Origin: a candidate division WOR-3 bacterium
Lineage (GTDB): Bacteria; Hydrothermota; Tepidihabitantia; B3-TA06
Length of the DNA stretch: 64,000 nucleotides
NCBI GenBank assembly: GCA_965649265.1
Contig: CBFGKC010000001.1
Coordinates: 109,119-173,118 of the forward strand
Direction: 5' to 3'
Program-made: the position numbers and the translations under genes
The notes under the pieces: model-generated
The model's database searches: none
What the model was told of the DNA's origin: nothing
Seen by the model: only the letters and a program-made list of their open reading frames with translations
Part shown: piece by piece, positions 16,066 to 33,128 of the stretch
How the letters are laid out: every line of letters begins with the position of its first letter
How positions within the stretch are numbered: position 1 is the stretch's first letter

Positions 16066-16093
16066 ATAGTATATTGCGAGTTGGGAAAGTCAA
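16066..16093 (-). promoter_or_regulatory. sigma70-type promoter of the cassette gene
   Basis: TTGACT-N16-TACTAT. Confidence 0.55.
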
Positions 16094-16199
16094 TGCTTAT
16101 CGGCAAATGGACGGGTGTCGTAGAAATAAAAAAAGGAACATTCCCTGCGGGAATAGATTGCTTCGGTTGCTCGAAGCAACCTCGCAATGACACTATGTT

Positions 16200-18266
16200 T
16201 TATGGGGTCAAGATCAGATACTGGAAGAGCTTTCTGCGCTCCTCCTCGGGCAGGAGGGAGTAGTGCGAGAAGTGCATGGCGAACGATGCGCGGCCCTGGC
16301 TGCGCGAGCGCAGGTTGGTCGCGTAGCCGAAGCTCTCGGCCAGGGGCAGGAAGCCCTTGATGAGCTTCTGTCCCTTGATGTCTTCGAGCTGCTCGATCTT
16401 TCCTCGTCTCGAGCCCAGGTCCGATATGATGTCACCCAGGTACTCCTCGGGCGTGATTATCTCAAGGTCCATTATCGGCTCGAGAAGCGCGGGCGAGGCC
16501 TGTTCGTATGCGTCGCGGAATGCCTGAGCGGCGGCTGCCTTGAAGGCGATGTCGGAGGCCTCCTCCTCCCTGAACTCCACGTCGGTTACGGTCACGCGCA
16601 TGTTGGTCACGGGATACCCGAGAAGGGGCCCGGCGGTGAAGGAGTCCGAAAGGCTCTGTTCGATAGCCTGCAGGAACTCCCGGGGCAGCTCGCTCCGCAA
16701 ACGAATCTTGACGTCCTTGCCGCCCTCGTGCGGCTCGACCTTCACCGTCACGGCGGCGTAGTGATTTTTTGTGCCTATCGCCCTCGCGAACACGGCCTTG
16801 CGCTCGATCTTCTCGGTCACGGTCTCCCTGTATGATACCTGGGGCTTGCCCACGCGCACGGGCACGCGGAACTCGCGCTGCAACCTGTCCGCCAGTATCT
16901 CCAGATGCAGTTCGCCCATGCCGGAGATGAGCGTCTGGCCTGTCTCGGGATCGATGCGGACGCCGAAGGTCGGGTCCTCCAGCTGCAATATCTCGAGCGC
17001 TCTTCCGAGCTTTGCCTCGTCGGCCTTGGTGTGAGGCTCAACCGCCTGGTGGATGACGGGTTCGGGGAAGCGCATGGCCTCGTATGCTATCGGGTGCTTC
17101 TGGTCGGAGAGCGTTGAGCCTGTCGAGACGTGTCGCAGTCCGGATATCAACCCGATCTCGCCCGCCTGGAGCGTCGCGACTTCCTCGAAGTGGTTGGCGT
17201 GCGGAAGGAAGAGCTTCTGCGCGCGCGAACGTTTTGCGCCTGGGAAACCAAGCACCGTCTCTCCCTGCTTGAGCGTCCCCGAGTAGACCCTCGTGAACGC
17301 CAGAGGTCCCATGTGCTGGTCGTAGGCAAGCTTGAACACGAGGCCGGAGAAGGGCTCCCCGGACAGGGGCTTGCGAATCTCGACTTTCGCCTCGTCTTCC
17401 GGATCGTGCCCGGCAAGCGGCGGCACGTCGAGGGGGGAGGGGAGGTAGTCAATGATGGCGTCCAGCAAGGGCTGCACGCCCTTGTTCTTGAGGGCCGATC
17501 CGCAGAGCACGGGCACTATTTTGCCCTCAAGGGTCAACCGCCTCAACGCTTTCTTGAGCGGTGCCGACTCGCTCTTGCGGCCGGCGAGAAAATCTTCTAA
17601 AATCTCCTCTTCCACCTCGCTCGCCTCGTTGACGAGGCGCTCGCGCCAGCGCCTGGCCTCCTCCACCAGCTCCCCGGGAATTTCCTCCACTATGTACTCC
17701 GCTCCCAGAGTCTCGTCCTTCCAGCGCAGCGCCTTCCACTCGACTAAATCCACTATACCCTTGAACCCCTGCTCTGCGCCCCACGGGATCTGGACGGGCA
17801 CGGGCTTCTGCGAAAAGCGCGCCTGCATCATGTCGACGACGCGCTCGAAATCCGCAGCCACGCGGTCCATCTTGTTTACGAGCGCTATCCTTGGAATATG
17901 ATACCTGTCCGCCTGGTGCCACACGGTCTCCGACTGTGGCTCGACGCCCGCGACCGCGTCGAAGATGACCACAGCGCCGTCGAGAACCTTGAGCGAGCGT
18001 TCCACCTCGATAGTGAAATCGACGTGGCCGGGAGTATCAATCACGTTGATGCGGAAATCTTTCCAGTACACAATCGTCGCCGCGGACGTAATGGTGATGC
18101 CCCTTTCACGCTCCTGCTGCATCCAGTCCATGGTGGTCGAACCCTCGTCCACCTCGCCCATCTTGTGAATCCTCTTTGCGTAGTAGAGAATCCTCTCCGT
18201 AGTAGTGGTTTTTCCGGCGTCTATATGCGCGGCTATGCCTATGTTTCGAAGCTTTAAAAGGTCCAT
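16200..18266 (-). CDS. fusA: elongation factor G paralog (atypical domain IV)
   Basis: [41 protein letters not shown]. 688 aa. Not in an rpsL-rpsG-tuf context. Confidence 0.9.
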
Positions 18267-18273
18267 TGTCGGA

Positions 18274-19725
18274 TTAACGGGCTATTTCCTTGGCTATTTC
18301 CTTGAGGATGCCTGCGGATTTCATCCGGTCCGAAGGCAGGCAGGTCATGGTTTTGGTGTTGCGAACCTCCACCGAAACCTTTATCTCAGGTTTTGTCGGG
18401 TCCGTATTGATGACGAACGCCGGACCGGTGACCCGCTCTCTTAAAAGCGAAAGCGCAAAATTAAGATTGGCAACTTCCTCCTCCACTCCCGAATTCGCGA
18501 GAAGTATGATTCCCTGCACCTTTGCCACGAACGTCTGCCAGAGGGGCGCGAAGCGCTTGGCTCCCGGAAGCCCGTAGAGGTTGAACTGGTAAGGGCCTAT
18601 CACCACCTTGCCGAAATTTAAAACCTTGTCCTCCGATTTAAGGGAGTCCTCCTCACCCGAAACGGTGTGGATGAAGATGTTTCGGGAATCCCTGTCGGTG
18701 CCTATAACGACAAGATTGAATACGTGCGTAATGGCCTGCGGCTTTAGCTCATCCCCGCCTGCCTCCTCGATATCCGCGCGCTGGCCCAGCTCCGCCACTC
18801 CCGCCGAAATCATCGTCTTGAGAACCTCGAGGGTTCCGAAATCGGAGAAAGGGCTTTCCGTAAGCAGCTGGCGCACCGTCAGCTTTCCGTCCGCGAGCTC
18901 GGCAATGTAACTCTGCTCATCATTGAGCTCCCGTCCGTTGGCATGAATCACCGGGACGGCGTCCAGATTAAGCTCCTGCTTTATTCGCTCCGCCTCGTCC
19001 AGCTCCCGCAGCGACTCGAATATCGCCTCGTCGGTCTGGTTCTGTATCGAAGGGATCACTGAAAGACTCTCCGTGAGCTTCACCTTGAAGGTACCCTCGG
19101 ACCACGAAAGCAGAGTGGGCAGAGCGGCGAGGCCGTGCTTGTTGCGGTAGTTGGCGGCTATGAGTTTTCCGGCGGCAAGGTAAAGGACTCCCTGCTCACC
19201 GGAGGATTCCAGATACACCTCGCCCGTCTTCTGGCCGAAGGAGAGCATCTGTAAAAGATCAATAACACCGAGATCCTCGATTCTTCCCGATGTCGCGACC
19301 TCGGACTCCTCCGAGCGCTTGAATGTCTCGCGGTAGCGCGCGTAGCGGTCCAGGAGAATTTCCATGCGCGCGAGCAACTCCCTGAACTCGAAGGGTTTCG
19401 TGAGATAATCGTCGGCTCCAAGCCTCAATCCTTTTACCTTATCCTGCGTGTCGGCGAGTGCCGAGAGAAATATGAACGGGATATTGCTCAGGTGCTCCGT
19501 TCCCCTTATGCGCTCGCAGAGCGCGTAGCCGTCCATTCCGGGCATCATTATGTCGGCAATCACTATGTCTGGCGCGTTTCCCTGCGCCTTCTCGAGCGCG
19601 ACGTTCGCCGATGACGCCACCGTGACGTCGAAGCCTTGCTCCGAGAGCCTTATCTCCAGGAGATTCAAAAGATGCGGATCGTCGTCAACGACGAGGACTT
19701 TGTATGTCGGAACCTTGGCGTTCAC
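18274..19725 (-). CDS. response regulator: REC + DUF4388 (PatA-N) + winged-helix-like + MglA-like degenerate small GTPase domain
   Basis: REC VDDD…DIMMP…KPF. DUF4388 [16 protein letters not shown]…TG…G.LY…GKL..A…W.EG.F. C-terminus LNFGKV…[12 protein letters not shown] resembles MglA/CvnD DFG…LFGTPGQ.RF..MW. Confidence 0.75.
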
Positions 19726-20108
19726 GGCTTGTTCCTTGCAGAGGTGCGTTCAAGAACCGCCGCTATATCCGCCGCCACCTGCCGCGTGTCTATGGGTTTG
19801 GCTATGAAACCGTCGCACCCGCACGCGTTGACTATCTCCTCGTCATGCCTGTCGGATATTGCCGTGACCGCTATCACCGGTATCTTCTTCAAATCCACAT
19901 CTCTCTTTATGATTCGGGTCGCCTCGTAGCCGTCCATTCCGGGCAGATGCATGTCCATGAGAATCAAATCGGGTTTGAGTTCCCTTGCCAGCGCTATGCC
20001 CTCATCGGCGGTCTGGGCGCATCTTACCACGTGGCCGACCATTTCCAGAAGCACGCGCAGGAGCTCCTGGTTGCCTTCGTTATCCTCAACCACGAGAATG
20101 GTGCTCAC
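19722..20108 (-). CDS. single-domain response regulator (DivK/CheY-like)
   Basis: ILVVEDN…ILMDMHLPGMDG…IPVIAVTA…GCDGFIAKPID. GTGA overlaps with both neighbours. Confidence 0.9.
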   Translation of the reverse strand: MSTILVVEDNEGNQELLRVLLEMVGHVVRCAQTADEGIALARELKPDLILMDMHLPGMDGYEATRIIKRDVDLKKIPVIAVTAISDRHDEEIVNACGCDGFIAKPIDTRQVAADIAAVLERTSARNKP

Positions 20109-21658
20109 GACTGTTTCTCCTCGGTCGTCTGGCGGCCCAGGAGCTCGCCGATCTTGCGCCTGAGCGATGTACGATCGAGCTGGGCCTTGGTGAATATATC
20201 CCTGATGTTGCGGCCAAGATTGGCGCGGTCTATCTCCGTCAAATCCTTCGCGGTAAACAAAATCACGGGCAGGCTCTTCGTAATCTCATCCGACTCGAGC
20301 AGCCGCATGACGTCGAAGCCGTCGAGGTCGGGCATCATCAAATCGAGAACCACGAGGTCGGGTTTCTCCTTGCGCGCCGTCTTTACCCCCTCCACCCCGC
20401 TCGCGGCCTTCAGCACCTCGTAGCCGTCAATCTTGAGCATCTCCTCGATGAGACTTATATCCGCGGGATTGTCGTCAATGACGAGCACGCGGTGTGTCTT
20501 GCGGCCCTTCTGGGCGAGCCGCTCAATCTTGGACAGGAGTTCGAGTCTTGCGACCGGTTTGACCATGTAGTCCACGGCTCCAAGCGAGAGCCCGAAGCTC
20601 TTGTCCTCCACAATCGAAACGACGATTATCGGAATATCCTTTGTCTCCGGAAGCTCCTTTAACCGGTGAAGCACGCGCCAGCCGTCCATCTCGGGAAGAA
20701 GAATGTCCAGCGTTATCGCGGCCGGCAGGAGGGTTATTGCCTTGCGCAGCGCCTCCTCCCCAGTCGTTGCGACCTCGACCTTGTAGCCGGCGTCCGCGAG
20801 CCACACAGACATGAGATTTGCCGCAAGCTGGTTGTCCTCGACCACGAGAACGGGCTTGTCGGTGGGCGGAGGAAGCTTTTCCTTCAACTCGCCGGCGGCG
20901 GCCTCCATTGCCGGAGTCTTGGGCTGCTCGAACTTGACGAACGGGAGCTTTATCGTGAACGTGGAGCCCTTGCCGGGTGCGCTCGAGACGTCAATGGACC
21001 CGCCCTGAATCTCAAGAAGCTTCTTTACGAGCGCGAGCCCGAGCCCCGTGCCCTCATATCTTCTTGTGGTAGATGCATCCACCTGATGGAATGCGTCGAA
21101 AACCTTTTTTATTTCCTCCTCCTCGATCCCTATCCCCGTGTCCGAGACCGAGACCACCAGCTTGTCACTTATCTTGCCGGCCTTGATGTTCACGTTGCCC
21201 TTCTCGGTGAACTTGACCGCGTTGGAAAGGAGGTTGTCTATAATCTGGGCAAGCTTGCGCCGGTCGGTCAACAAAGTCTCCAGAGGCTCAATCTCGACAG
21301 TTATCTTTATTCCCTTTCTCTCCGCCAGCACGTTGTATGCCTTCAGGACATCATCCACAATCAGCGCGAGATCGGTCGGTTCGTTGAATATCTCGAGCAT
21401 ACCGGCCTCGAGCCTTGAGAAATCCAGAATGTCGTTCACGAGACGCAGAAGGTGGGTTCCCGACGAGTGTATGATGCTTATATAATGAGATTGCTTTTCG
21501 TTAAGACCGCCGACAAGACCGTCCATGAGGAGTTCCGAGAATCCTATTATCGAGTTCAAGGGCGTACGGAGTTCGTGGCTCATGCTTGCTAAAAACTGAG
21601 ACTTGAGCCTTGCGGTCTCAATAATCTCCTGGGCTCTTTTGTTATCGTCCTGCTTCAA
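20105..21658 (-). CDS. hybrid histidine kinase HisKA-HATPase-REC-REC, no sensor domain
   Basis: H-box SHELRTPL at about residue 28, NLLSNAVKFT, DTGIG, GTGLGL, two receivers. TTG start after AGGAGG. Confidence 0.9.
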   Translation of the reverse strand: MKQDDNKRAQEIIETARLKSQFLASMSHELRTPLNSIIGFSELLMDGLVGGLNEKQSHYISIIHSSGTHLLRLVNDILDFSRLEAGMLEIFNEPTDLALIVDDVLKAYNVLAERKGIKITVEIEPLETLLTDRRKLAQIIDNLLSNAVKFTEKGNVNIKAGKISDKLVVSVSDTGIGIEEEEIKKVFDAFHQVDASTTRRYEGTGLGLALVKKLLEIQGGSIDVSSAPGKGSTFTIKLPFVKFEQPKTPAMEAAAGELKEKLPPPTDKPVLVVEDNQLAANLMSVWLADAGYKVEVATTGEEALRKAITLLPAAITLDILLPEMDGWRVLHRLKELPETKDIPIIVVSIVEDKSFGLSLGAVDYMVKPVARLELLSKIERLAQKGRKTHRVLVIDDNPADISLIEEMLKIDGYEVLKAASGVEGVKTARKEKPDLVVLDLMMPDLDGFDVMRLLESDEITKSLPVILFTAKDLTEIDRANLGRNIRDIFTKAQLDRTSLRRKIGELLGRQTTEEKQS

Positions 21659-21700
21659 CTGGCCTCCTAGGCGAAAAGCATAAAACCGTGGTAGATATGT

Positions 21701-21728
21701 AGTTTAAGCCGGGTTTAAGAATTGTCAA
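21701..21728 (-). promoter_or_regulatory. sigma70-type promoter of the kinase-…-fusA operon
   Basis: TTGACA-N16-TAAACT. Confidence 0.65.
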
Positions 21729-22240
21729 GATGTAACGTTTCTAAAAAAGCGAAAAATTAAACGAATATCCCGGAAACTTAACACCGTAAAAACTTGCAGC
21801 AAATAAACGCTCGAGTCTTTCCCTAGGTGTGTAAAAAAGTGCCTCTTATTTCATCTTCTGTGCCGCGTATATTCATCCTCTATATAATATGTACATACCG
21901 CACGAATCATTTTGGGACACTTAAAGCTGTCGGGAACCCCGTTCATCGAGCCCGTCATTTGGACCTGCTGCGGACCCCCTCCCCCCTGTCACTCGACTCT
22001 CACCGATCTCCATCGACGAACGCCGGCTTTTACCCTTTGCTGCAAGCTCCTCTAAAAACAAGGTTCATACGCCGTTTAGCTCGCAGCCTTCAAGCCCCTG
22101 ACGGTACTTAGCGCAGGCCGATTGTATCGGAGACATAATATTAATAGTTCTTGCTTGATTAATGTATTGTTTCTTAAATCGATACCGATTCGATACCTGC
22201 CTGTGGGGAGCATGGTCAAGTGGAATGGTGCTTACGAGTA

Positions 22241-22269
22241 TTGACATCCAAAACTTACAGGGGTATACT
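22241..22269 (+). promoter_or_regulatory. sigma70-type promoter of the large PAS kinase
   Basis: TTGACA-N17-TATACT. Confidence 0.75.
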
Positions 22270-22366
22270 ATCCTTGAATTTGGATCGGTTGTATGAATTC
22301 CGGACAGGGGAATCACGCAACCTCCGTCTTAAACCAGGATTTGCACATCAAGGAGGGTAATGCCTG

Positions 22367-25300
22367 ATGGGCAGAAATTCCGGTGCGGCCGAAGGGCCTG
22401 TAACCGTCGAAAAAGAAAGGAAAATCAAGGACGTATTCCGCGTGAGGCTTATTCGTGGATTTCTGTTTTGGGGAGTGGTTGCAGGCGCGCTCATGTGGTT
22501 TACAGGGACCCTGATCGAGAGCGTCTTCTTTACTTACCGCCCGTATCTCGAGCAGCTGCTTTATCCGGCGACTTATACGCTGGTCGTTCACATCTCATCG
22601 TCTTTGATATGCGTCGGTGTGGGTGTCGCACTCGAGCTCGCCCACAAACGCTACCGCAAGAGCCAGAACCGGCGTGCTGAGGAACTATCCACCCTTTTCG
22701 AAACCAGCGCGGCGGTATCTTCGACTCTTGATGAGTCCGACCTCAGACAGTTGATTGTCGACAGGGCGGGCGAGCTTTTGCGCGCGGACGGCTGCATCTT
22801 TTACGGCTACGACGAGGTTCAAAAAGTGCTTGTGCCCATGGCCACGAGCGTCAACCTTTACCGGGAAGAGATAATGCGGTTCAACGTACCCATGGGCGAG
22901 GGAATCACGGGGCGCGCCGCGCTCGAGCGTCGTACGATTCTCGCGAATAAGGTGCATCTCAATCCCGAGGCAAAGCACATTCCGGGTACACCAAACAACC
23001 CGACGTCGATTCTTGCGGCACCTCTGGTCTCGGGCAGCGAGTTCCTCGGCGCCATGAGCGTTCTTCGCCTGAGCGAAAGGGATTTCAACGAGCATGACCT
23101 GGGCCTTTTCACCCTTTTCGTGAGCCAGGCTTCCGAGGCTGCGGGGCACTCAAGGCTCTTCAGCAGGCTGCGCGAATCGGAGAAGCGTTTCCGCAGCTTT
23201 GAAGGTGTGGTCACCGATATGATCTACCGGTACGATACCGGCCGCAAGGATTACGACTTCATCTCTCCTTCCTTCGAGACCATGACCGGATACACCATCG
23301 CGGAGATCCGGAAAAACCCGCCGCATTTCTGGGAGAACCTCGTGTACCCAGAGGACGCCCAGAGGGTGAAAGACGAGATCAAGACCCAGCTCTCCACCCG
23401 GGGGGGCGACGATTCGTACAACCTTGAATACAGGATCGTAGCCAAGTCGGGTGAGGTGCTTTGCGTGAACGAGCGCGGCAACTTCGAGCTGGACAGGGAT
23501 GGTAATATAGCGAGCTTTAACGGCGTCGTAAGAGACATAACGGAACGCAAACACACCGAGCTTCTTAGAGAAGTTAAAGCCAGGCTGCTCGAAAAGCTGC
23601 GCCAGGCCGGGAGCATCGAGGACTGCCTCAACCGGGGCTGCCAGGCCGTCAGTGAGGCAAGGCTCTTCAAACGCGCGATTTTCACCACGAAGGACGAGAA
23701 CGGTATGACCACCCACATCGGCCAGACCGGGATAGACCGGGCGCTGCTCGAAGAGATGAACAAAAAGCCGCCTGCTCCGAAAGAGCTGCTTGCGCGCGTC
23801 CTCAGGGAAGAGTTCAAGATAAGCCACTCGTACTTTGTAACCGCAGAATCGGGAGCCAACCTGGAGATAGCAAAAACCGGCCGGTATCTCTTGCAAGAGG
23901 AATCGTCCGGAGCGGGACCCAACGCCTGGCAAAGGGGAGACGAACTTCTCGTTCCGATGTTCGGTATGGACGGTTCGATGGAGAGTTTCCTTACCGTGGA
24001 CACGCCTTACAGCGGCGCGCGTCCCGACAAGGCTACGGTGTTATATCTCGAAGACATTGCCGATATTGTGGCACGCCAGATTCACGAGATTGAGAATCTC
24101 GAGGCACTCCGGACCTCGGAGGAGCTGAGCAGGACGGTAATTGAGCGTTCTCCTCTGGGGGTCTCAATACGAAACAAAAACGGCAAGCTTTTGAGTGCGA
24201 ACGAAGCCTGGAAGAAAATCTGGGCTATGCCGGAAGTGGAATACAGGGCGGATTTGAAAAGGGAGAGACAGGAGCTTCACTTTGAAAAAAGGGACTCGTA
24301 TCTTAAAACCTGGCAGCCGCAGGTCAGGGAGATATACGAGAAGGGCGGGTACCTGCATATCCCGGAGGTCCAGGTTCTGAATCCAAGGCCGGGCGGTGCC
24401 CTGTGGGTATCGCACCATTTTTACGCGATAAGGGGTTCGTCGGGTGAGGTAAGCAATGTGGTGATTCTCACGGAGGACATCTCGGACCATAAAAAGGCCG
24501 AAGAGGCGCTCATGGATTCGGAGGAACGTTACCGCAGCCTTACGGAGAGCGCTCTCGTGGGGATATACATCTTCTCGCCCGATAACCGCTTTCTTTACGC
24601 GAACCCGGCTACCGAAAAGATTTTCGGATACACGCGCGAAGAGCTTATGGCGATGGAGAACCCCTGGGGTGTCGTCCTCGAAGAAGACATTGAAAACGTC
24701 ATAAACGAACGTGAAAGGATGCGGTTGCGCGGAGAGTTCGTGCCTCCGACGTACGACCTTCGCATACGCCGCAAATCCGGCGAGGTGGCGGTTCTCGAGA
24801 TCAAATCGCACCCGATAATATTCGAAGGCAAAACGGCCTACCTGGGCAACTGCATCGACATAACCGAGCGTAAAAGAGTCCAGGATGCGCTTTCGAGGGA
24901 GCACAGCGCATTCAGGATAATAGCCGAGGCATCCATTCGCGCCGAGAATATTCCCGATTTGTGCCAGCGTGTGCTTTCGGGACTTGTTGACGCGCTCGGT
25001 TTCGACGCCGGAACCTTCAGGCTCTACGACGAGGGGGAAAGCGTTCTCGAACTGGTTGCATCTGTGGGCCTGAGGGAAGAGGAAAAAGCCAATCTCGTGT
25101 ACTTGCAGACTATCGACGACCCTCGTTACGTGGCCGCGTTTACGGCGCGTACGCGCAAGCCGTTGATTGTTCCTGACGTCGCTAAGGAAGAAATGCTCGA
25201 TCCTTACCTCGAAAGGCTGAATAAATTTTCCGAGCGCTCGCTCATATCATGGCCCATGCTCGGTGCGCGGGAGAATCTTCTCGGGATATGGCATCTGTGG

Positions 25301-27601
25301 TCGAGGGAAAGGGTCGAAATCTCAGGTACCGATCAGAGCTTCTTTGAACGAGTCTCAGGCATGTTCGGCGCTGCACTCGAACGCAAGCACGCGGAGGAGG
25401 CGCTTCGCGAATCCGAGGAGCGCTACCGCGCGTTCACCGAGGAGGCAATGGTCGGCGTTTACATATACCGCGAGGGCAGTTTCCTTTTCGTGAACCGGGA
25501 GATGGAGCGCATCTCAGGATACTCGAGGGAGGAACTCCTAGCCAACCCTCCCGACATCATGGTTCTTCCCGAGGAGGAGGAGAGTCTGAAGGCGCGTGAG
25601 CGCGACCAGAAGGAGGGCAGGGAGGTTCCGAGACAGTACAACATGAGAATCTATCGTAAGACCGGCGAGATATCGATGCTCGAGGTCCGCACGAGGCCCA
25701 TCATCTACGGCGGCGAAATGGCCTTCCTGGGCAACTGCGTGGACGTGACCGAGGTCCGCAAGATGCAAGAAGCGCTTAGTGAATCCGAGGAGCGCTACCG
25801 TGTTCTCACCGAGGAAGCCATGATGGGCATCTACGTCGCATCGGGCTCCAGATTCGTATTCGCAAACCCGGCCATGGAGAAAATAACGGGCTATTCGAGG
25901 GAAGAGCTTCTCGGGCTCTCGCTGGAGGATATTATCCATCCGGAGGAACTAGATGTAGCAAAGGAGCGCGAAAGTCAGCTTAAACCCGGTGAACCCGACC
26001 AGTACAACATGAGAATCAAGAAAAAGGACGGTGGTCTGGCAGTGCTCGAGGTGCGCACCAGGCCGCTCTCCTCGACAGGGGAAGGGTCAGTCTTTTTGGG
26101 CAACTGCGTGGATGTGACCGAACTCGTGAACCAGAGGGCGCAAATCGAGCACGCGAAGCTTGAATGGGAACGCACCTTCGATTCGATACCGGACATGGTA
26201 ATGATACTCGACATCCAGCAGAATATCATCAGGGCAAACAGAGCGGTGGCCGAATACATGGCAGTGGGCTTTCCGGAACTTTTGGGCAAGAAATACCTTG
26301 AAGTCTTTCACTTGAAAGGCAGGGAAAGCGCCGCGATCCGCAGGATACAGTCAAAGATTCCCGAGCACTTTGAGATAGCCGATCCCGTGACGAAGAGAAC
26401 GTTCTCGGTCTCTGTCGCCCCTCTTCTCGATCCATCGGGCGAGGTGCTTGCGAGGGTTTACGTGGCCCGTGACATAACGGACATGAGGAGCATAGAGGAG
26501 GCGCTCGTTCAGTCCGAAGCACAGTTCAGAGGGCTTGCCGAAAGCGCACAGGACGTCATATTCAGCCTCGATCATGAAGGAAAAGTCCTCTACATCAACC
26601 CGGCGCTGAAGGAGATTTTCGACTACGACCCCGCCAGTATAGTGGGGGTGACGGTAAGAGATCTTATCGAAACAAGGAACGTGCCGGCCTCGACGCGATC
26701 GGTCATATACGAGAATCTCTTTGAGCGAACACTTAAGGGGAAAACGGCCGTTTTCGAGATAGAGATAGAGGATGCGTCCAAACGCATCCACGTTCTTGAG
26801 GTCTCTGTAAGAAAACTCCCGAACCAGATTCTGGGAATTGCTCGCGACATCACGAATCGCAAGCGAATGGAAGAACAGCTCATAAGGGCTTCCAAGCTGG
26901 CATCCATAGGCGTACTGGCCGCAGGCATCGCGCACCAGGTCAACAATCCCCTCGCGATCATGCTCGCCACTTCCACCGTGCTGCGGGATATTATTTCTTC
27001 GAACTCCCAGATACCGCCTCAGGTGTCCGAGGAAGCTTCAAAATACCTCGATACCATGGAGATACAGGTCGAGAGAACTCGCAGGGTCGTTTCAGGTCTC
27101 CTTGAATTCACCCAGCCCAAGCGAAGCGAGGTCGAGCCCTCGGACGTTAACGTGATTGTCAGCGAAGCACTCGAACTGCTTGCCGATCCGCTCGATTCAT
27201 CCAACCTTGACCTCGACGTCACGTTCGACGACGATCTGCCGCTCGTACTGGTCGATCCTGTTGCCTTGCAGCAATCTCTCATCAACATTATCCAGAATGC
27301 CTATGAAGCCATGAACGGAAAGGGCAAGCTTGAGGTAAAAATAGAAAGATCAGGGAGCGATACCATCCGCATTACGCTCTCCGATAACGGCCCTGGGATT
27401 CCGCCTTATTTGAAGGAAGAAATATTCGAGCCGTTATTCACGACGAAGACTGACAGAAAGGGCACCGGTCTTGGGCTTCCAGTGAGTGTCATGCTCCTGG
27501 AACGCTTTGGCGGCAGTATTCGTCTCGAGGATACTCCCGGCGGCGGAGCGACGTTCGTTATAGAAGTTCCGATACGAGAAAAGGAGCAGGATGCAAGCTG
27601 A
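22367..27601 (+). CDS. membrane-anchored multi-GAF/PAS histidine kinase (NtrB-like core), 1744 aa
   Basis: Two N-terminal TM segments, GAF domains, many PAS/PAC units (SEERYR…DITERK). H-box AGIAHQVNNPL, NA.EA, DNGPG, FTTK…GTGLGL. Confidence 0.9.
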   Translation: MGRNSGAAEGPVTVEKERKIKDVFRVRLIRGFLFWGVVAGALMWFTGTLIESVFFTYRPYLEQLLYPATYTLVVHISSSLICVGVGVALELAHKRYRKSQNRRAEELSTLFETSAAVSSTLDESDLRQLIVDRAGELLRADGCIFYGYDEVQKVLVPMATSVNLYREEIMRFNVPMGEGITGRAALERRTILANKVHLNPEAKHIPGTPNNPTSILAAPLVSGSEFLGAMSVLRLSERDFNEHDLGLFTLFVSQASEAAGHSRLFSRLRESEKRFRSFEGVVTDMIYRYDTGRKDYDFISPSFETMTGYTIAEIRKNPPHFWENLVYPEDAQRVKDEIKTQLSTRGGDDSYNLEYRIVAKSGEVLCVNERGNFELDRDGNIASFNGVVRDITERKHTELLREVKARLLEKLRQAGSIEDCLNRGCQAVSEARLFKRAIFTTKDENGMTTHIGQTGIDRALLEEMNKKPPAPKELLARVLREEFKISHSYFVTAESGANLEIAKTGRYLLQEESSGAGPNAWQRGDELLVPMFGMDGSMESFLTVDTPYSGARPDKATVLYLEDIADIVARQIHEIENLEALRTSEELSRTVIERSPLGVSIRNKNGKLLSANEAWKKIWAMPEVEYRADLKRERQELHFEKRDSYLKTWQPQVREIYEKGGYLHIPEVQVLNPRPGGALWVSHHFYAIRGSSGEVSNVVILTEDISDHKKAEEALMDSEERYRSLTESALVGIYIFSPDNRFLYANPATEKIFGYTREELMAMENPWGVVLEEDIENVINERERMRLRGEFVPPTYDLRIRRKSGEVAVLEIKSHPIIFEGKTAYLGNCIDITERKRVQDALSREHSAFRIIAEASIRAENIPDLCQRVLSGLVDALGFDAGTFRLYDEGESVLELVASVGLREEEKANLVYLQTIDDPRYVAAFTARTRKPLIVPDVAKEEMLDPYLERLNKFSERSLISWPMLGARENLLGIWHLWSRERVEISGTDQSFFERVSGMFGAALERKHAEEALRESEERYRAFTEEAMVGVYIYREGSFLFVNREMERISGYSREELLANPPDIMVLPEEEESLKARERDQKEGREVPRQYNMRIYRKTGEISMLEVRTRPIIYGGEMAFLGNCVDVTEVRKMQEALSESEERYRVLTEEAMMGIYVASGSRFVFANPAMEKITGYSREELLGLSLEDIIHPEELDVAKERESQLKPGEPDQYNMRIKKKDGGLAVLEVRTRPLSSTGEGSVFLGNCVDVTELVNQRAQIEHAKLEWERTFDSIPDMVMILDIQQNIIRANRAVAEYMAVGFPELLGKKYLEVFHLKGRESAAIRRIQSKIPEHFEIADPVTKRTFSVSVAPLLDPSGEVLARVYVARDITDMRSIEEALVQSEAQFRGLAESAQDVIFSLDHEGKVLYINPALKEIFDYDPASIVGVTVRDLIETRNVPASTRSVIYENLFERTLKGKTAVFEIEIEDASKRIHVLEVSVRKLPNQILGIARDITNRKRMEEQLIRASKLASIGVLAAGIAHQVNNPLAIMLATSTVLRDIISSNSQIPPQVSEEASKYLDTMEIQVERTRRVVSGLLEFTQPKRSEVEPSDVNVIVSEALELLADPLDSSNLDLDVTFDDDLPLVLVDPVALQQSLINIIQNAYEAMNGKGKLEVKIERSGSDTIRITLSDNGPGIPPYLKEEIFEPLFTTKTDRKGTGLGLPVSVMLLERFGGSIRLEDTPGGGATFVIEVPIREKEQDAS

Positions 27602-28985
27602 AGAATCGAAAGAGAGGATAAGGGTTCTCCTTGTTGACGATGAAAGGTCCTTTCTCGAGGCGACGTCAAAGGCGCTGAACGTGAGAGGCTGCGATATTGC
27701 CGTTGCATCGAGTGCGATGGACGCAATGGTCGAACTGGAATCGAGGTTCTTTGATGTTGTCGTTCTTGATCTCCGCATGCCCGGCATGGACGGGCTCGAA
27801 CTCATGCGCAAGCTTAACGCCGAGCGCCCCACCCAAAAGGTAGTGATCGTCACGGGCCACGCCACGGTCTCGACGGCGGTGGAGGCAATGAAGCTGGGCG
27901 CATTCGAGTTTCTCTTGAAACCCGTGAGAATAGACGATCTCCTTCGCGTGATACAGCGCGGGGCCGAGCTGGGACATCTTGAGCGCCAGAACATCGCGCT
28001 TGCCGAGGAACTCGAACGGCAGCGCGGTTCGGACAAGATAGTCGGTGAAAGCCAGGCCATCAAGAGCGTCAAGGAGTTCATAGACGATGCGGCGGCATCG
28101 AATCTTCCGGTGCTCATAACCGGTGAAAGCGGGACAGGTAAGGAACTCGTTGCCCGCGCGATACATGCGCGGAGCAATCGCTCGGCGAACCAGCTCGTGA
28201 TCGTTGACGGCTCCACCCTTCGTGAAGAGCTCATCGCCTCCGAGCTGTTCGGACACGAGAAAGGCGCCTTTACGGGGGCCGTCACGAAAAAAGCGGGTCT
28301 GTTTGAGATAGCCGACAGAGGGTGTATTTTTCTCGACGAGATAGCCGAACTCTCCGCGTCCAACCAGGCCGCTCTGTTGCGCGTCATCGAGTACGGAACG
28401 TTCAGGCCGCTTGGAGGGTTAAGGGAGGTTCACACGAACGTGCGCATCATTGCCGCGACCAACCAGGATACAAAATGCCTTGTCGCCGAGGGCAGGTTCA
28501 GGGAGGACCTCTTTTACAGGCTCGCCGGCCTGATCATAAAGATACCGCCCCTGCGCGAGCGCAAGGAGGACATACCCGTTCTGACCGATTTCTTCCTTTC
28601 ACGCCACAACGTATCCAACGCGTCGCAGGTGAAAATATCCAGCCAAGCCCGGGAGGCTCTTCTCGAATACTCATGGCCGGGAAACGTGCGCGAGCTCTTG
28701 TACGTTCTGGAACGCGCCGCTCTCCTGGGCCGCAAGGAGGGTGTGATAACGGCCAACCTTGTTCCCGCGACCGACCGTAAAGATGAAGCGACCTCCGGCC
28801 AGCCTGCAGGGGAGTTTTGCCCAAAGGACAAGCCCACGCTCGCGGAGCTCTCGGCCCGTTACGAACAAGCCTACATAGGCAAGCTGCTTGCCGAGTTCGG
28901 CGGAAACAAGTCCGAGGTCGCAAGGGTGCTCGGGATAAGCAGATCCGTGCTCTACGACAAGCTGCGGAAGCTGGGACTGGAATAA
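27591..28985 (+). CDS. sigma54-dependent response regulator (NtrC/AtoC family)
   Basis: REC, GESGTGKE, intact GAFTGA, FLDEI, FREDLFYRL, WPGNVREL, Fis-type HTH. Confidence 0.93.
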   Translation: MQAEESKERIRVLLVDDERSFLEATSKALNVRGCDIAVASSAMDAMVELESRFFDVVVLDLRMPGMDGLELMRKLNAERPTQKVVIVTGHATVSTAVEAMKLGAFEFLLKPVRIDDLLRVIQRGAELGHLERQNIALAEELERQRGSDKIVGESQAIKSVKEFIDDAAASNLPVLITGESGTGKELVARAIHARSNRSANQLVIVDGSTLREELIASELFGHEKGAFTGAVTKKAGLFEIADRGCIFLDEIAELSASNQAALLRVIEYGTFRPLGGLREVHTNVRIIAATNQDTKCLVAEGRFREDLFYRLAGLIIKIPPLRERKEDIPVLTDFFLSRHNVSNASQVKISSQAREALLEYSWPGNVRELLYVLERAALLGRKEGVITANLVPATDRKDEATSGQPAGEFCPKDKPTLAELSARYEQAYIGKLLAEFGGNKSEVARVLGISRSVLYDKLRKLGLE

Positions 28986-28989
28986 ACCG

Positions 28990-29025
28990 CCCCATAAAAA
29001 TACAGGGTGTTTTTATGGGGACCCC
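28990..29025. repeat. 14-3-14 hairpin repeat with ACCCC tail
   Basis: CCCCATAAAAATAC-AGG-GTGTTTTTATGGGG-ACCCC, 4 bp after stop 28985. Confidence 0.8.
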
Positions 29026-29319
29026 AAATAAACATCCCAGGAAACCGCTTCGAGTTTCCTTAGGGACAACACTACGTTATAGCTCCGAGAGTTTCATCCT
29101 TCAGAACTACCCACGGCAGCTGCACCTTCGAATGGAAGCCCGGAAATCAGTTCCTGGCTTTCGGGAACCTTTTAAAAAAAACCTTCGCGGGCTTGCGAAA
29201 GCGGTATGACGATCGATTTTAAAAGAGAACCATCCTCGCCTGAGATACCTTGAGTCTGTTCGCGATGCTCCAATGCTTGAGGAGGAGGGGGGGCGAAGCG
29301 AATCGAGCCGACGATTACA

Positions 29320-29377
29320 TGTCCTAAAACCGGTCAGTTGCCCTAAAAACGGGCACCGTATGTACGGAATCCATACA
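29320..29377. promoter_or_regulatory. putative enhancer (UAS): three tandem 17-bp TG-N13-CA palindromes
   Basis: TGTCCTAAAACCGGTCA (29320), TGCCCTAAAAACGGGCA (29339), TGTACGGAATCCATACA (29361), about 70-130 bp upstream of a -24/-12 site. Confidence 0.55.
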
Positions 29378-29449
29378 AGCAAGTCCAGGAATTCGAAAGC
29401 GCCCCCTCCCCATGTCTCAAAATCCTGAGACTTATGCTCAAGCGAGTCC

Positions 29450-29465
29450 TGGCACGGAACTTGCT
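29450..29465 (+). promoter_or_regulatory. sigma54 (-24/-12) promoter
   Basis: TGGCAC-GGAAC-TTGCT, a consensus match, downstream of a sigma54 activator gene. Confidence 0.85.
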
Positions 29466-29593
29466 CCTTTATTCGGGTGCGAGTTTTTGTGACGCGGTAC
29501 AGGTATTGTCTTAGGGAAGACAAACCATCCTGAGAGAGTGGCTAGGGGGGTGAGGGGATAGCTTGCAAGCCGTGAACTTTAAACGGAGAGAAT

Positions 29594-30307
29594 TTGAATA
29601 AGAGTAAGGCTAATATTCTATTTGTAGACGATGAGAGAGATTTCGCCGCAATGATGGCGAAGGTTTTGGAACTTCGCGGATTTTCAGTCGAAACTGCATT
29701 TTCCGGCCCCAGCGCTCTTAAAACCTACCAGTCAAAAAGGTACGATCTGGTGGTTTCCGATCTCAGCATGCCGGGTATGGACGGCATCGAGCTGATCCGC
29801 GAGATTCGCAGAATCAATTCCTCTCAGCGTATCATCATAATAACAGGTTTCCCGTCGCAAGCATCCCAGAGAGAGGCATTCAAACTTGGGACAATCAATT
29901 ACATCGTCAAGCCTTTTTCCGTTAACAGGTTCCTTGAGGTGATTTCGGAGTCGCTAGAAGATGATGAGGAGGGTTTGCTGGGGCCGGTTCGTCTTAAATG
30001 CGAGGATCTCATACAAATGTACGCGCTCGGCGCGCAAAACATTACCATAGAGATACTTAACGCTCGTACGGGCGAATTGGGCCGCGTTTTCATAGAAAAA
30101 GGCAAGGTTGTGCATGCCGAGGCGGGAAAACTCAAGGGCGAGCAGGCGTTTTACGAGATTCAGTCGTGGGACTCCGGTGTGTTCAGAACGGAACCTCTCA
30201 AGGGCAAGGTTCCCAGAACCATTGACCGCAGCCCCGATGCCCTCATCCTCGAGGCGGCGCGCAGGCTTGACGAAAGTCCTGGGGTACGCCGCAAGTCTGC
30301 AAGGTAG
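29594..30307 (+). CDS. response regulator REC + DUF4388 (PatA-N)
   Basis: REC FVDDE…DLSMP…KPF, then DLIQM…G.VFIEKGKVVHA…GEQAFYEIQSWDSGVF…ALILEAARRLDE. Confidence 0.85.
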   Translation: MNKSKANILFVDDERDFAAMMAKVLELRGFSVETAFSGPSALKTYQSKRYDLVVSDLSMPGMDGIELIREIRRINSSQRIIIITGFPSQASQREAFKLGTINYIVKPFSVNRFLEVISESLEDDEEGLLGPVRLKCEDLIQMYALGAQNITIEILNARTGELGRVFIEKGKVVHAEAGKLKGEQAFYEIQSWDSGVFRTEPLKGKVPRTIDRSPDALILEAARRLDESPGVRRKSAR

Positions 30308-30316
30308 GAACTCCAG

Positions 30317-30640
30317 ATGCAAAAAAAGAAACAAGGCTTGAATTCATTCCATACCCTGGAGAAATTCGTGGCTCTGCTCGAGAATCTTCCCGGCGCCTAC
30401 GAGGTGTACTTAACGTCCGAGGCGGGGGAGGAGGGGGTCCTCTTTTGCGGGAACAAGATAATTCGTCATGCCGCATGCAAGGATCTCTCCGGCATGAATG
30501 CGATGAGCGAGATTCTTTCATGGAACGGGGTCAATTTTAACATCCGTCACGTTCCAACAAGCCCCGAACGCGAGATTTACATACCCCTGAACTACCTCCT
30601 TAAGGTTCTCAAGGAAAAGGTCGGGGCAGGGGTCTTCTAA
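30317..30640 (+). CDS. stand-alone DUF4388 (PatA-N)-like protein
   Basis: EGVLF…IRHA…SGMNAMSEILSW…F, homologous to the C-terminus of the upstream gene. Confidence 0.7.
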   Translation: MQKKKQGLNSFHTLEKFVALLENLPGAYEVYLTSEAGEEGVLFCGNKIIRHAACKDLSGMNAMSEILSWNGVNFNIRHVPTSPEREIYIPLNYLLKVLKEKVGAGVF

Positions 30641-30755
30641 GGGCCGGTTTTCCGTCGTCTACTGAAAGCATAACAGACGTTTTTGACGAAAACATCTTGC
30701 GTCCCTCATTTTTTCCATTATAATATAGCAGTAAAGGATAAAAAGGAGGGCGTAA

Positions 30756-31607
30756 ATGCCCGAGGAGATTAGTAAACAAACGATTCCCAGCGTTTTGTTC
30801 GTCGATGACGAAGTGGATTTCGCTGAGGCCATGTCAACACTCCTGGGGGCTGAGGGTTTTGAAGTAAGCGTAGCACATTCAGGTGCCGAGGCTTTGAATA
30901 CATACTCGAAAGGGAAGTTCGACCTGATAGTGACCGATCTCAAGATGCCTGTGATGGACGGGATCGAGCTCGTGCGTAACATACGCAGGCAGAACCCGAC
31001 ACAACCCATCGTTATCGTTACCGGTTTCCCCGGCCAGCTTACACCCTGGAACCGCCGGTTTAACGATAAGGATGAGGATCTGGTGGAGCTTGGGTCACTT
31101 AATTATCTCGTGAAGCCGTTCCAGCCAAAAAGACTCGTCGAGGTTGTCCGCGGCGCAATCGAAAAGCAGAAGGCAAGGCTTGCTCGCGCCAAAAGAACCC
31201 CGCCTCTTTCGGTTGCCGTTGCCGAGCAGTCGGGGTTGAGCTGGGTGTCAAAGGTAGCCCAGAAGACCCTTGAAGAAAGCGCGGACGCCATAGACGGTCT
31301 CATGGCTTCAGGCATTGCCGATACATCGGGCCGCATTCTTGCCGAGATTAACCCGGCCTCGATCCCTCAGAACTTGTACTGCGGCCGCTTCGCGATAGTC
31401 ATGGCCATACTGCGCGAGACCGCCCGCGACATGGGCAACGGCAAGGTGGTCGAGACAATCGTCGAGTCGGACTCGCACTGGAGCGTGGCTCACTTCATAG
31501 GCCAGAGCAACTACTACCTCTGTGTCGTGGCCTCGCGCCAGACAACGCTCGGCAACCTGAGAACCCTTGTCCGCAAACTGGCGGAGCGTTTCGAGAAGGT
31601 GATATAG
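30756..31607 (+). CDS. response regulator REC + Roadblock/LC7 (MglB-like) domain
   Basis: REC FVDDE…DLKMP…KPF. C-terminus IDGLMASGIADTSGRILA…MG.G.V.ETIVE……YYLCVVA….LG.LR..VR…..EKVI matches the Roadblock pattern. SD AGGAGG. Confidence 0.75.
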   Translation: MPEEISKQTIPSVLFVDDEVDFAEAMSTLLGAEGFEVSVAHSGAEALNTYSKGKFDLIVTDLKMPVMDGIELVRNIRRQNPTQPIVIVTGFPGQLTPWNRRFNDKDEDLVELGSLNYLVKPFQPKRLVEVVRGAIEKQKARLARAKRTPPLSVAVAEQSGLSWVSKVAQKTLEESADAIDGLMASGIADTSGRILAEINPASIPQNLYCGRFAIVMAILRETARDMGNGKVVETIVESDSHWSVAHFIGQSNYYLCVVASRQTTLGNLRTLVRKLAERFEKVI

Positions 31608-31612
31608 CTATT

Positions 31613-31648
31613 CCCCGTAAAAGTATGTCGTACTTTTGCGGGGACCCC
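31613..31648. repeat. 14-3-14 hairpin repeat with ACCCC tail
   Basis: CCCCGTAAAAGTAT-GTC-GTACTTTTGCGGGG-ACCCC, 5 bp after stop 31607. A second GGGGACCCCGACGACTTT follows at 31714. Confidence 0.8.
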
Positions 31649-31895
31649 GACGACTTTGCACCCCGGGAATAAACCCCGCATTTTTTCTCCGCAAACGTCG
31701 TCATTTCATGTCCGGGGACCCCGACGACTTTCAGAGAAAGTCGTTCAGAAGTTAATCTTCACTTCCTATTCAGGAAGATAAACTTCACCTGAGAATGATG
31801 GCTCTTCTTGTAATCGATGTCTTTCCAGCGTCACGAAATATTCGCTCCTGCGGAGCGTTGGAAGTTTAACTCCTATAATCCCAGGAGGTTAAACT

Positions 31896-33128
31896 TCAGT
31901 CTAAAACAACGGCTTTTCTGACTATGCTTGAATGGCCAGTCTCTAGCCTGATAAAATACACTCCTATTGCCAGCCCCGCTTTCAAGCTCACGCTTCCCTC
32001 ACCCTGGACCCGGATGCTCTCCACCCTGCGGCCTGCGGGATCGTAAAGGCTTATCGTGCCCTGCTCTCCAGGGGGGAGGGAGTAGCGTATCGAGGATAGT
32101 GATGCAAAATCAAGCCGGAGGACAGAGGGGGAGGGGGTCTCACCAATGCCGCTGTACTCCCTGGTCAGAATATCGTCCTCGTCGCACTCGTCCGGGGACA
32201 TTCCTGCAAGCCCGCCCGTGACAACGGTCAGCGTGTATGTGCCGCCGCCCGAACCACCGGTATAATCCTTGAAGCTGACCTCGGTGGAGTCGTCCGAAGC
32301 AAGACTCGCTACGATCACCGTGTCCGCATAGGGCGTTGCGCCCTCTATTGTGGCTATCACCTTGACGTCAGTCTGATCCTCGCGGCCGTTGTTCCAGACC
32401 ACAGCCCGTGGATGCGCAAGGTCGCCCGATATGCGCGTGAGGCCGATGTCGTAGTCGGCCCAGCCGGTAAGCCGGAGAGCATCGAAAAACGCCTTCTGGG
32501 AGTACCATGATCCATTGTCATAGTTAGTGTTTGCACGAAGAGATATTGTGTCAAATTCTAAAAGAGTATCCAGATTTTTTACTCCGATTAAATCCTCTTT
32601 GACGCTTTTCCTCATCAAATACCATACGCCTTCTTCATTAATCGTATCGATGAAATACTTCTCATACTTATTATCTGGAGGTGTTGCTAGCCAAGGGTTG
32701 TACCAACTATAAATAGCGTCTACTCCGTGCGGATCAGATGCATTGAAAAACTCCAAGCAGAGGAAAAAACTACTCGTGGGTTGATTCCCTGTACCTTTAG
32801 CGAGGTACATGTAAAAACATTCCAAAGAATCCAAATCGCTGAGTTTTTTTCTAAGGCTAACACCTTGAATTAACCTTCCTTGAGCAACATAAGGACCCGA
32901 TGGATTCGAGATGGGTTTTTTCCGCGTATCTATAGTCCCACTCCATTCACCAAGATAAAAGCTATCTGCATCGTGTTTGTTAACTAATATCGAATCTGTT
33001 CCCTCAGGAATGGTTCGGTATCTCCATAAACTACTTTCCAGCTCGAACCCCGCATCCTTGATAAGGTTCACCTTCTCAAGTGCCAGGAGCATTACCGGAA
33101 TCAATGTGATGTAAAGTAATCTTCTCAC
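31896..33128 (-). CDS. secreted protein with CARDB-like domain and T9SS CTD
   Basis: GTG start after GGAGG. Signal peptide. YDIG…VWNNG…(Ig/CARDB-like). CTD LYDPAGRRV…GVYFIRL…KAVVL. Confidence 0.75.
   Translation of the reverse strand: MRRLLYITLIPVMLLALEKVNLIKDAGFELESSLWRYRTIPEGTDSILVNKHDADSFYLGEWSGTIDTRKKPISNPSGPYVAQGRLIQGVSLRKKLSDLDSLECFYMYLAKGTGNQPTSSFFLCLEFFNASDPHGVDAIYSWYNPWLATPPDNKYEKYFIDTINEEGVWYLMRKSVKEDLIGVKNLDTLLEFDTISLRANTNYDNGSWYSQKAFFDALRLTGWADYDIGLTRISGDLAHPRAVVWNNGREDQTDVKVIATIEGATPYADTVIVASLASDDSTEVSFKDYTGGSGGGTYTLTVVTGGLAGMSPDECDEDDILTREYSGIGETPSPSVLRLDFASLSSIRYSLPPGEQGTISLYDPAGRRVESIRVQGEGSVSLKAGLAIGVYFIRLETGHSSIVRKAVVLD

Follow-up and report, generated by a model that had tools for sequence, protein, structure and literature searches.

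Receiver-linked PATAN, Roadblock-like and degenerate small-GTPase domains in two neighbouring two-component modules of a candidate division WOR-3 bacterium

Ras-like GTPases with Roadblock partners, and the PATAN (DUF4388) domain, are recognised parts of bacterial polarity and motility switches, and the link of these parts to two-component signalling is mostly known indirectly, through RomR and the Frz system. A stretch of 64,000 nucleotides (nt) from a candidate division WOR-3 bacterium (B3-TA06; assembly GCA_965649265.1, contig CBFGKC010000001.1, positions 109,119 to 173,118 of the forward strand), called here the window, encodes proteins in which the link is literal: receiver domains (REC) joined in one protein to PATAN and a G domain, and in another to a predicted Roadblock domain. 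The region under study comprises positions 18274-31607, numbered in the window, and the adjoining gene of elongation factor EF-G (16200-18266). It raises the question of whether such proteins build one phosphorylation-gated MglA/MglB-type scaffold, as proposed in an initial annotation made from the sequence, or belong to distinct systems. On balance it is probable that they form two separate two-component modules, neighbours by chance, whose outputs would be PATAN, Roadblock and small-G docking domains, not DNA-binding or enzymatic ones.

Separate inheritance of the two units

The nine genes of the region form two divergent groups and are all open frames at the coordinates first annotated (Table 1). 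The left unit, on the minus strand, runs from a hybrid kinase through a single-domain receiver and a 483-amino-acid (aa) regulator (REC, PATAN, linker, G domain) to EF-G, with gene gaps of -4, -4 and 7 nt. The right unit, on the plus strand, runs from a PAS/GAF kinase through a sigma54 activator, a REC-PATAN protein (237 aa) and a 107-aa protein to a REC-Roadblock protein (283 aa), with gaps of -11, 608, 9 and 115 nt. The domain content first proposed for both kinases is confirmed by Pfam, which finds no sensor domain in the 517-aa hybrid kinase and recovers the PAS/GAF repeats, HisKA and HATPase of the 1744-aa kinase. The receiver first labelled DivK-like is a single-domain REC by Pfam. The receivers retain the acidic pair, phospho-acceptor Asp, Ser/Thr and Lys, as read from their translations.

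The left unit is present in four of four full-length loci found in one-genome-per-species contigs, three from Candidatus Stahlbacteria and one from an 'uncultured bacterium', with identities of 70-72% for the hybrid kinase, 66-69% for the REC, 55-70% for the regulator and 74-76% for EF-G. These loci are free of right-unit genes over 8.4 kb upstream and ~8-10 kb downstream. In G001, a genome of the same genus, the left unit is found on contig 77 and a complete right unit (51-78% identity), with a different neighbour, on contig 67; the 10.9 kb beyond the hybrid kinase on contig 77 are free of right-unit genes. Being on different contigs in G001 and unlinked in the four other loci, the two units are inherited separately and lie side by side only in the window's genome. 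Their juxtaposition arose by local accident or is of recent date, and the single 'island' described initially dissolves into its two halves.

The distribution of the two units across genomes differs as well. The G domain is found in 14 of 61 genomes searched, the window's own counted, and is confined to three families (f1 10/10, f3 2/2, f5 1/1, the rest 0/47), and a full-length REC-Roadblock orthologue in four of the 13 relatives that bear it (G001, G002, G004 and G010). Genomes G002, G004 and G010 have the order kinase, REC-PATAN, REC-Roadblock, with neither the activator nor the 107-aa protein, and in G005 a kinase and a REC-PATAN gene are found at a contig end.

Domains and sigma54 control of the right unit

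The C-termini of the 283-aa and 483-aa proteins gave only sub-threshold Pfam hints, and both domains were therefore folded with AlphaFold2 on alignments of orthologues taken from relatives' DNA. For the 283-aa protein the hints were MAPKK1_Int (19.1 bits) and Robl_LC7 (PF03259, 15.7 bits against a cut-off of 23). The model of residues 155-283 has a predicted local distance difference test (pLDDT) score of 83.6 and the DSSP order H-E-E-H-E-E-E-H. Its best Foldseek matches are Asgard Roadblock3 and the MglB proteins of Myxococcus and Thermus (template modelling (TM) score 0.68-0.76, E ~2e-7), followed by MP1/p14 and LAMTOR. The protein is thus predicted to consist of a receiver and a Roadblock fold, with MglB and Asgard Roadblock as its nearest structures, in keeping with the REC-Roadblock first proposed for the gene at 30756.

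The initial annotation counted three PATAN domains. Two of them, in the 483-aa and 237-aa proteins, are well above the Pfam cut-off (Table 1), but the third, in the 107-aa protein, has no Pfam match at E up to 10. Its profile aligns with the PATAN segment of the 483-aa family over 49 columns (hhalign probability 81%, E 1.2e-5), and the protein shares 35% identity with the N-terminal part of a PATAN+Roadblock paralogue of 299 aa on contig 3, whose own PF14332 match is sub-threshold (20.7 bits). It can be read with moderate confidence as a divergent mini-PATAN.

PATAN and Roadblock domains abound in the window's genome, with 14 PF14332 and 13 PF03259 matches. The genome encodes PATAN-linker-Roadblock proteins and two REC-PATAN-Roadblock fusions, of 370 aa on contig 7 and 387 aa on contig 11 (PF03259, 36.9 bits). 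The contig-7 fusion belongs to a paralogous unit (L121:13-7722) with a 1490-aa PAS/GAF kinase and a 478-aa sigma54 activator. In this single polypeptide the parts of the 237-aa and 283-aa proteins are joined, which is Rosetta-stone evidence for their cooperation. The ATPase family PF00437 (PilB/PilT/GspE type) has no match in the genome, which is 96% complete; this speaks against a type IV pilus target such as cyanobacterial PATAN regulators have.

A cluster in relative G008 (L124:5571-8845) brings together a dead G domain (174 aa), a 167-aa open reading frame (ORF) without family matches, an ACT protein, a 330-aa PATAN protein and a divergent Roadblock-like gene, so that all three folds are linked there without fusion. 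On contig 4 of the window's genome an ORF of ACT size, assigned by size only, is grouped with PATAN and Roadblock genes and has no G domain beside it.

The element TGGCACGGAACTTGC, 130 nt upstream of the TTG start of the REC-PATAN gene, is the only zero-mismatch match to the -24/-12 consensus in the window; matches with up to two mismatches are not enriched (35 against 48.6 expected). Across the genome exact elements number 17 versus 5 for a reversed control, and rpoN is present (151 bits). The activator carries Walker A (GESGTGK) and GAFTGA motifs, the latter at residue 225. The element is kept at the same place in G001 as TGGCATGGAACTTGC, with one C-to-T change, and the contig-7 paralogous unit has the exact element TGGCACAAAGATTGC (TGGCAC-N5-TTGC, L121:6209-6223). 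The exact element, the GAFTGA activator, rpoN and this conservation together support a putative sigma54 control of the REC-PATAN, mini-PATAN and REC-Roadblock genes, in line with the activator, promoter and induction of these genes first proposed.

The ~120-nt leader that follows the element is ~85% conserved with respect to G001 (L118:16665-16786), and the sequence 5' of the element is poorly conserved. The leader hairpin TGTCTT-AGGG-AAGACA reads TGTCTA-AGGG-TAGACA in G001, with one compensatory pair, and has no Rfam match; a search of positions 15000-33000 against Rfam at E up to 0.1 gave none at all. Candidate activator dyads are seen at 29320-29378, ~75-130 nt upstream of the -24 box (TGTCC-N7-GGTCA, TGCCC-N7-GGGCA and TGTAC-N7-ATACA); G001 has two copies of TGTAC-N7-GTACA at L118:16513-16571.

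Among the three right-unit regulators the receivers share 43-48% identity. This would suit one kinase that serves them all, and the circuit would then have a feed-forward design.

The degenerate G domain of the 483-aa regulator

The C-terminus of the 483-aa regulator has a sub-threshold Arf match of 17 bits (19.6 bits with the C-terminus scanned alone). The AlphaFold2 model of residues 331-483, built on a 12-sequence alignment, has a pLDDT of 88.0, a predicted TM score of 0.85 and the G-domain topology b1-a1-b2-b3-a2-b4-a3-b5-b6-a5. Foldseek places it closest to Arl8b, RhebL1, Arl6 and Rabs in the Protein Data Bank (PDB; TM 0.75-0.80, E 4e-9 to 4e-8), and VIA-align superposes 150-152 of its 153 residues on Rab, Arf and Rheb (Z ~17, root-mean-square deviation 2.6-3.0). 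A profile of the 12 sequences reaches Arl8/Arl10 at E 5e-8, and all 60 PDB matches listed are Arf or Arf-like small GTPases, two Asgard Arf-type proteins included. These results indicate a Ras-superfamily small GTPase fold, as the initial annotation had recognised.

The nucleotide motifs are degenerate throughout the family. A word search yielded 18 members of 471-587 aa, all of them REC+DUF4388 proteins named merely 'response regulator' in databases, and none has a GxxxxGK[ST] P-loop. The corresponding position reads G-T-D-R-D-S-R-N, with G342, R345, R348 and N349 invariant; in the alignment with Arl8, R348 takes the place of the P-loop Lys and N349 that of the Ser/Thr. At G3 the domain has G-L-P-G-A opposite D-I-G-G-Q, and at G4 I-N-T-D-P opposite the A-N-K-Q-D of active relatives. 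A 16-residue switch-II/interswitch stretch is nearly invariant in the same family. The impression that the GTPase looks dead is borne out by the state of its G1, G3 and G4 motifs.

An exhaustive HMMER search of 1.84 billion protein representatives returned 156 matches at E <= 1e-3, 15 of them at E <= 1e-10. Six of these 15 are giant proteins (964-4984 aa) that match only profile positions ~42-66 repeatedly and were dropped as spurious; one of them, P0028, has serial FNLYG..G..RFGP-type repeats, read as FN3-like, and the other five share its match pattern. The nine true representatives at this level all lack the P-loop, which is present in 106 of 135 weaker matches. P0025 (194 aa), apparently a stand-alone copy, turned out to be a fragment of a 520-aa cluster member. 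Stand-alone dead copies of ~174 aa do occur in G007 and G008.

One of the weaker matches, P0064 (519 aa, 'response regulator', Candidatus Edwardsbacteria), combines REC, DUF4388 and Arf domains with an intact P-loop and NKxD. Such a regulator with an active-looking G domain suggests that the window's family is a degenerate offshoot. The C-terminus varies in other REC-DUF4388 proteins, among them one from candidate division KSB1. A metagenome scan with P0064 gave 66 loci, none covering the full architecture: 63 match only query residues 1-159, the receiver end, and three (L189-L191) are confined to a part of the G domain, with 26-33% identity. In the ESM Atlas the best score was 0.89, below the lead level of 0.9; a 485-aa cluster with Calditrichota as its commonest taxon, PatA_N in 24% and Arf in 15% of its members, is at most a lead.

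The linker between PATAN and the G domain has an Lrp/AsnC-type helix-turn-helix (HTH) protein, PH1519, as its best PDB-sequence match, at E 0.26, and a TrmB match at E 0.099 in one of the 18 members, both weak. The winged helix placed here initially is the one domain assignment for which no significant match was found.

The initial name 'MglA-like' holds in a broad sense only. The window's genome has a textbook MglA (PGLGGKT, TVPGQ, NKRD) on contig 4, directly after a Roadblock gene (L120:17489-18565) that scores 88.4 bits with the NCBIfam MglB model, below its cut-off of 200. Contig 5 (L119:4857-6892) encodes a Roadblock protein, a 344-aa ORF without family matches and an active small GTPase. 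When the genome was searched as 14,471 six-frame ORFs, the dead-domain profile matched only itself and the contig-5 GTPase (E 0.004), with no match to the genome's own MglA at E up to 10. A profile that misses this MglA and reaches Arl8/Arf argues for an Arf/conservon-type domain, not a canonical MglA, to which 'MglA-like' would apply only in the broad Group 2 sense. MglA chains are also absent from the matches listed by Foldseek, VIA-align and the PDB search, but these lists are filled with Arf and Rab and provide no test.

Among active proteins, the nearest to the dead domain are ~170-aa GTPases that match both ATP_bind_1 and Arf in Pfam and have in common a GTPGQxRFxFMW-type switch II; the contig-5 GTPase beside the Roadblock gene matches both families too. 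We take these GTPases to be of the conservon CvnD type. Wuichet and Sogaard-Andersen (2014) place conservon GTPases in 'Group 2 MglA' and describe conservons as combining a kinase, a Roadblock protein and a GTPase.

Mechanism and alternative readings

In the preferred reading of two modules, the soluble, sensor-less hybrid kinase of the left unit would feed the single-domain receiver and the REC-PATAN-linker-pseudoGTPase regulator. The unit would be one operon, from a sigma70-like promoter to a terminator-like hairpin, with the canonical-type EF-G gene as last cistron. Its G domain would descend from an active Arf/conservon-type GTPase that lost G1, G3 and G4, kept its switch-II/interswitch surface and no longer cycles nucleotide; phosphorylation of the receiver may control the access of partners to this surface and to the PATAN domain. 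In the right unit the large PAS/GAF kinase would phosphorylate three paralogous receivers. The phosphorylated sigma54 activator would turn on the promoter of the REC-PATAN, mini-PATAN and REC-Roadblock genes, and the same kinase would then phosphorylate the receivers of the induced proteins, closing a feed-forward loop. The most likely cellular target is the assembly or localisation of a PATAN/Roadblock complex.

Several observations weigh against this reading. No Hpt domain that could pass on phosphate from the hybrid kinase was seen in either unit. The -24/-12 assignment rests on a consensus match, and the assignment of the mini-PATAN is weak. The P-loop Lys is replaced by Arg and the former P-loop residues R345, R348 and N349 are invariant, which leaves room for a non-canonical phosphate or nucleotide ligand. 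The EF-G linkage, seen in 11 of 13 loci and treated here as passive, hints at a translational connection.

A possible but tentative elaboration is that receiver phosphorylation replaced the GTP cycle, so that REC-PATAN would present or hide the switch-II face of a G-protein decoy. The partner would then be GTPase-recognising, either a Roadblock dimer resembling a GTPase-activating protein or the translational GTPase centre. The tight lineage-wide co-transcription with a canonical EF-G is what would point to such a machine.

A single system spanning both units, with the dead G domain paired in MglA fashion with the Roadblock domain of the 283-aa protein and each of them gated by phosphorylation, was the model of the initial annotation; it is unlikely. 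Both folds are supported by models, their genes are 11 kb apart in the window, PATAN, Roadblock-like and pseudoGTPase genes cluster in G008, and MglB-type Roadblock dimers bind G domains in structures among the fold matches (3t12, 6izw). The adjacency of the units is nevertheless not kept in G001 or the four other loci, a full-length REC-Roadblock orthologue accompanies the G domain in only 4 of 13 relatives, and the 13 Roadblock matches in the genome are alternative partners. A complex prediction of the G domain with two Roadblock copies scored 0.02 against a mark of 0.32 and counts neither way.

It is similarly improbable that the domain still works as a nucleotide or phosphate switch through a non-canonical site, with R-x-x-R-N replacing G-K-S/T. 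The invariance of G342 and of the three other residues named above speaks for selection on the old nucleotide pocket, yet the G1 Lys and Ser/Thr, the G3 Asp and Gln and the G4 Lys and Asp are gone, none being retained in any of the 18 members.

Regulation of translation by the left module, with the REC-PATAN-pseudoGTPase acting on EF-G or the ribosomal GTPase centre, is quite unlikely even though the linkage behind it is firm. The EF-G of the window scores 863 bits with the TIGR00484 equivalog (cut-off 659.4) and has intact AHIDAGKTT and DTPGH motifs; a second copy on contig 5 scores 659.5 bits and better fits a different EF-G subfamily model. The 'EF-G paralog' of the initial annotation is therefore an EF-G, but it is the copy that best fits the equivalog and not a divergent paralogue. 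A canonical-type EF-G gene lies directly downstream of the regulator in loci from two families, at regulator identities of 38-80%; of the two exceptions, one locus ends 81 nt past the regulator gene and the other, in G015, keeps kinase-REC-kinase-regulator genes without EF-G. No sigma70-like site was found by consensus scan in the 7 nt between regulator and EF-G, and EF-G is not preceded by related kinase or receiver genes in five class-level relatives that lack the regulator.

Gene order, however, shows no interaction, and a housekeeping gene may ride an operon or use an unrecognised internal promoter. The fusA gene must also sit somewhere: neither EF-G copy of the window's genome adjoins rpsG, and of the 30 genomes sampled that have an rpsG match, G014 alone has EF-G next to it, fusA being detached in the other 29. 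A move of fusA next to the regulator on leaving the str operon was considered and rejected, since detachment is class-wide and not coupled to that move. The linkage is real and unexplained, and is treated as co-transcription without assigned function. On contig 9 (106759-115912) rpsL-rpsG is followed by what seem to be rplM, rpsI, rpsB, tsf, pyrH and frr, a reading of N-termini without a family scan.

The least probable reading makes the PATAN regulators transcription factors that bind DNA through a winged helix after PATAN: the linker has a weak Lrp/AsnC-like HTH pattern and the genome's stand-alone PATAN proteins have a similar tail, but the HTH match is not significant, the 237-aa REC-PATAN protein lacks such a region, and a Synechocystis preprint deems the predicted DNA-binding role of PatA-type regulators unlikely.

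The two modules of the preferred reading resemble several known systems in part. Like the MglA-MglB pair of Myxococcus and Thermus, they combine Roadblock-fold and small G-domain proteins in a PATAN-rich genome, and the modelled C-terminus of the 283-aa protein superposes on MglB (TM 0.68-0.75). They differ in that both folds are receiver-fused and in separate operons, with the true mglB-mglA pair elsewhere, on contig 4, and in that the G domain has no nucleotide motifs and is unmatched to the genome's own MglA. With the conservon (CvnA kinase, CvnB Roadblock, CvnC, CvnD GTPase) they share a histidine kinase, a Roadblock protein and a small G domain. There is, however, no four-gene operon here: the parts are split over two operons, no Roadblock gene is found by Pfam in the left one, and the kinases are predicted to be soluble and the G domain inactive. 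Receivers are present, whereas the conservon, according to Wuichet and Sogaard-Andersen (2014), has no response regulator. DUF742 has no match in the 18 family members at E up to 1.

Cyanobacterial PatA-type regulators (PixG, PixE) likewise pair PATAN with a receiver and employ it as a protein-interaction output; the Synechocystis preprint treats PATAN as a receiver-linked protein-interaction domain. The order here is REC-PATAN and not PATAN-REC, there are additional G-domain and Roadblock partners, and the known target PilB is apparently missing from the window's genome. Eukaryotic pseudoGTPases such as the middle domains of p190RhoGAP have lost the nucleotide motifs but keep the G fold for use as a scaffold; the domain of the window differs in being bacterial, receiver-fused, Arf/conservon-derived and predicted from sequence and model. 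The archaeal REC-NitrOD3 proteins also fuse a receiver to a Roadblock/LC7-related output (Galperin et al. 2018). They belong to another lineage and sequence family, and the part of that paper used here describes no PATAN partner or sigma54 control for them.

The initial statement that this is not a described system holds in part. PATAN genes beside mglA/mglB are already in print (Wuichet and Sogaard-Andersen 2014, citing Makarova 2006). In full-text searches no description was found of a receiver-PATAN-G-domain regulator, active or dead, although neighbourhood supplements may list similar fusions; nor was one found of a split or fused REC-PATAN/REC-Roadblock pair under sigma54, or of the EF-G linkage of such a regulator.

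The active REC-PATAN-GTPase (P0064), its conserved dead version, the stand-alone dead copies and the split or fused REC-PATAN and Roadblock proteins form a natural series, which makes it testable whether phosphorylation can substitute for nucleotide switching in a G-domain scaffold. The host phylum, WOR-3/Stahlbacteria, is barely cultivated and apparently without type IV pilus ATPases, which raises the question of what PATAN/Roadblock systems regulate in cells without pili. An unexplained extra is the conserved position of a canonical-type EF-G gene behind the regulator.

Table 1. Features of the region, with positions in the window.
Feature	Position	Strand	Basis
Terminator-like hairpin and T-run, just past the EF-G stop codon	16139..16155	-	consensus scan
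Canonical-type EF-G gene, closing the left operon 7 nt past the regulator gene	16200..18266	-	TIGR00484, Pfam EF-G domains
Regulator of 483 aa: REC, PATAN, helical linker, C-terminal G domain	18274-19725	-	Pfam and fold
Pseudo-GTPase domain, residues 331-483 of the 483-aa regulator	18277..18735	-	AlphaFold2, Foldseek, VIA, profile
Helical linker, possibly winged helix, residues 246-330 of the 483-aa regulator	18736..18990	-	weak matches
PATAN/DUF4388 domain, residues 146-245 of the 483-aa regulator	18991..19290	-	PF14332 58.8 bits, cut-off 25
Receiver domain, residues 10-121 of the 483-aa regulator, phospho-acceptor Asp present	19363..19698	-	PF00072 102.6 bits
Single-domain receiver, 128 aa, 4-nt overlaps with both neighbours	19722..20108	-	PF00072 86.8 bits
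Cytoplasmic hybrid histidine kinase, 517 aa: HisKA from residue 19, HATPase, two RECs	20105..21658	-	Pfam
Sigma70-like promoter TTGACA-16-TAAACT, 5' of the hybrid kinase	21701..21728	-	consensus scan, 10/12 positions
Sigma70-like promoter TTGACA-17-TATACT, 5' of the PAS kinase	22241..22269	+	consensus scan, 11/12 positions
Histidine kinase, 1744 aa: PAS/GAF repeats, HisKA, HATPase	22367..27601	+	Pfam
Sigma54 enhancer-binding response regulator: REC, Sigma54_activat AAA+, HTH_8; overlaps the kinase by 11 nt	27591..28985	+	Pfam
Hairpin with 14-nt arms, directly past the activator stop codon	28990..29020	+	
Putative sigma54 -24/-12 element TGGCACGGAACTTGC	29450..29464	+	consensus match
5' leader with hairpin, conserved in a same-genus genome	29470..29593	+	alignment
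REC-PATAN response regulator, 237 aa	29594..30307	+	PF00072 95.7 bits, PF14332 50.9 bits (cut-off 25)
Divergent mini-PATAN protein (putative), 107 aa	30317..30640	+	hhalign, paralogue identity
Regulator of 283 aa: REC, predicted Roadblock	30756-31607	+	Pfam REC and fold
Receiver domain with insertion, residues 13-131 of the 283-aa regulator	30792..31148	+	PF00072 86 bits
Roadblock/LC7-fold domain (predicted), residues 155-283 of the 283-aa regulator	31218..31604	+	AlphaFold2, Foldseek

Two tandem ORFs of equal length, 855 aa, lie on the minus strand at 1245-3812 and 3992-6559; they may be paralogous surface proteins and have no Pfam match at E <= 1e-5. Next to the right unit, at 31896-33128 on the minus strand, is a gene for a CARDB protein with a weak match to a T9SS C-terminal sorting domain. 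Its homologue flanks the opposite side of the right unit in G001, which points to a local rearrangement.

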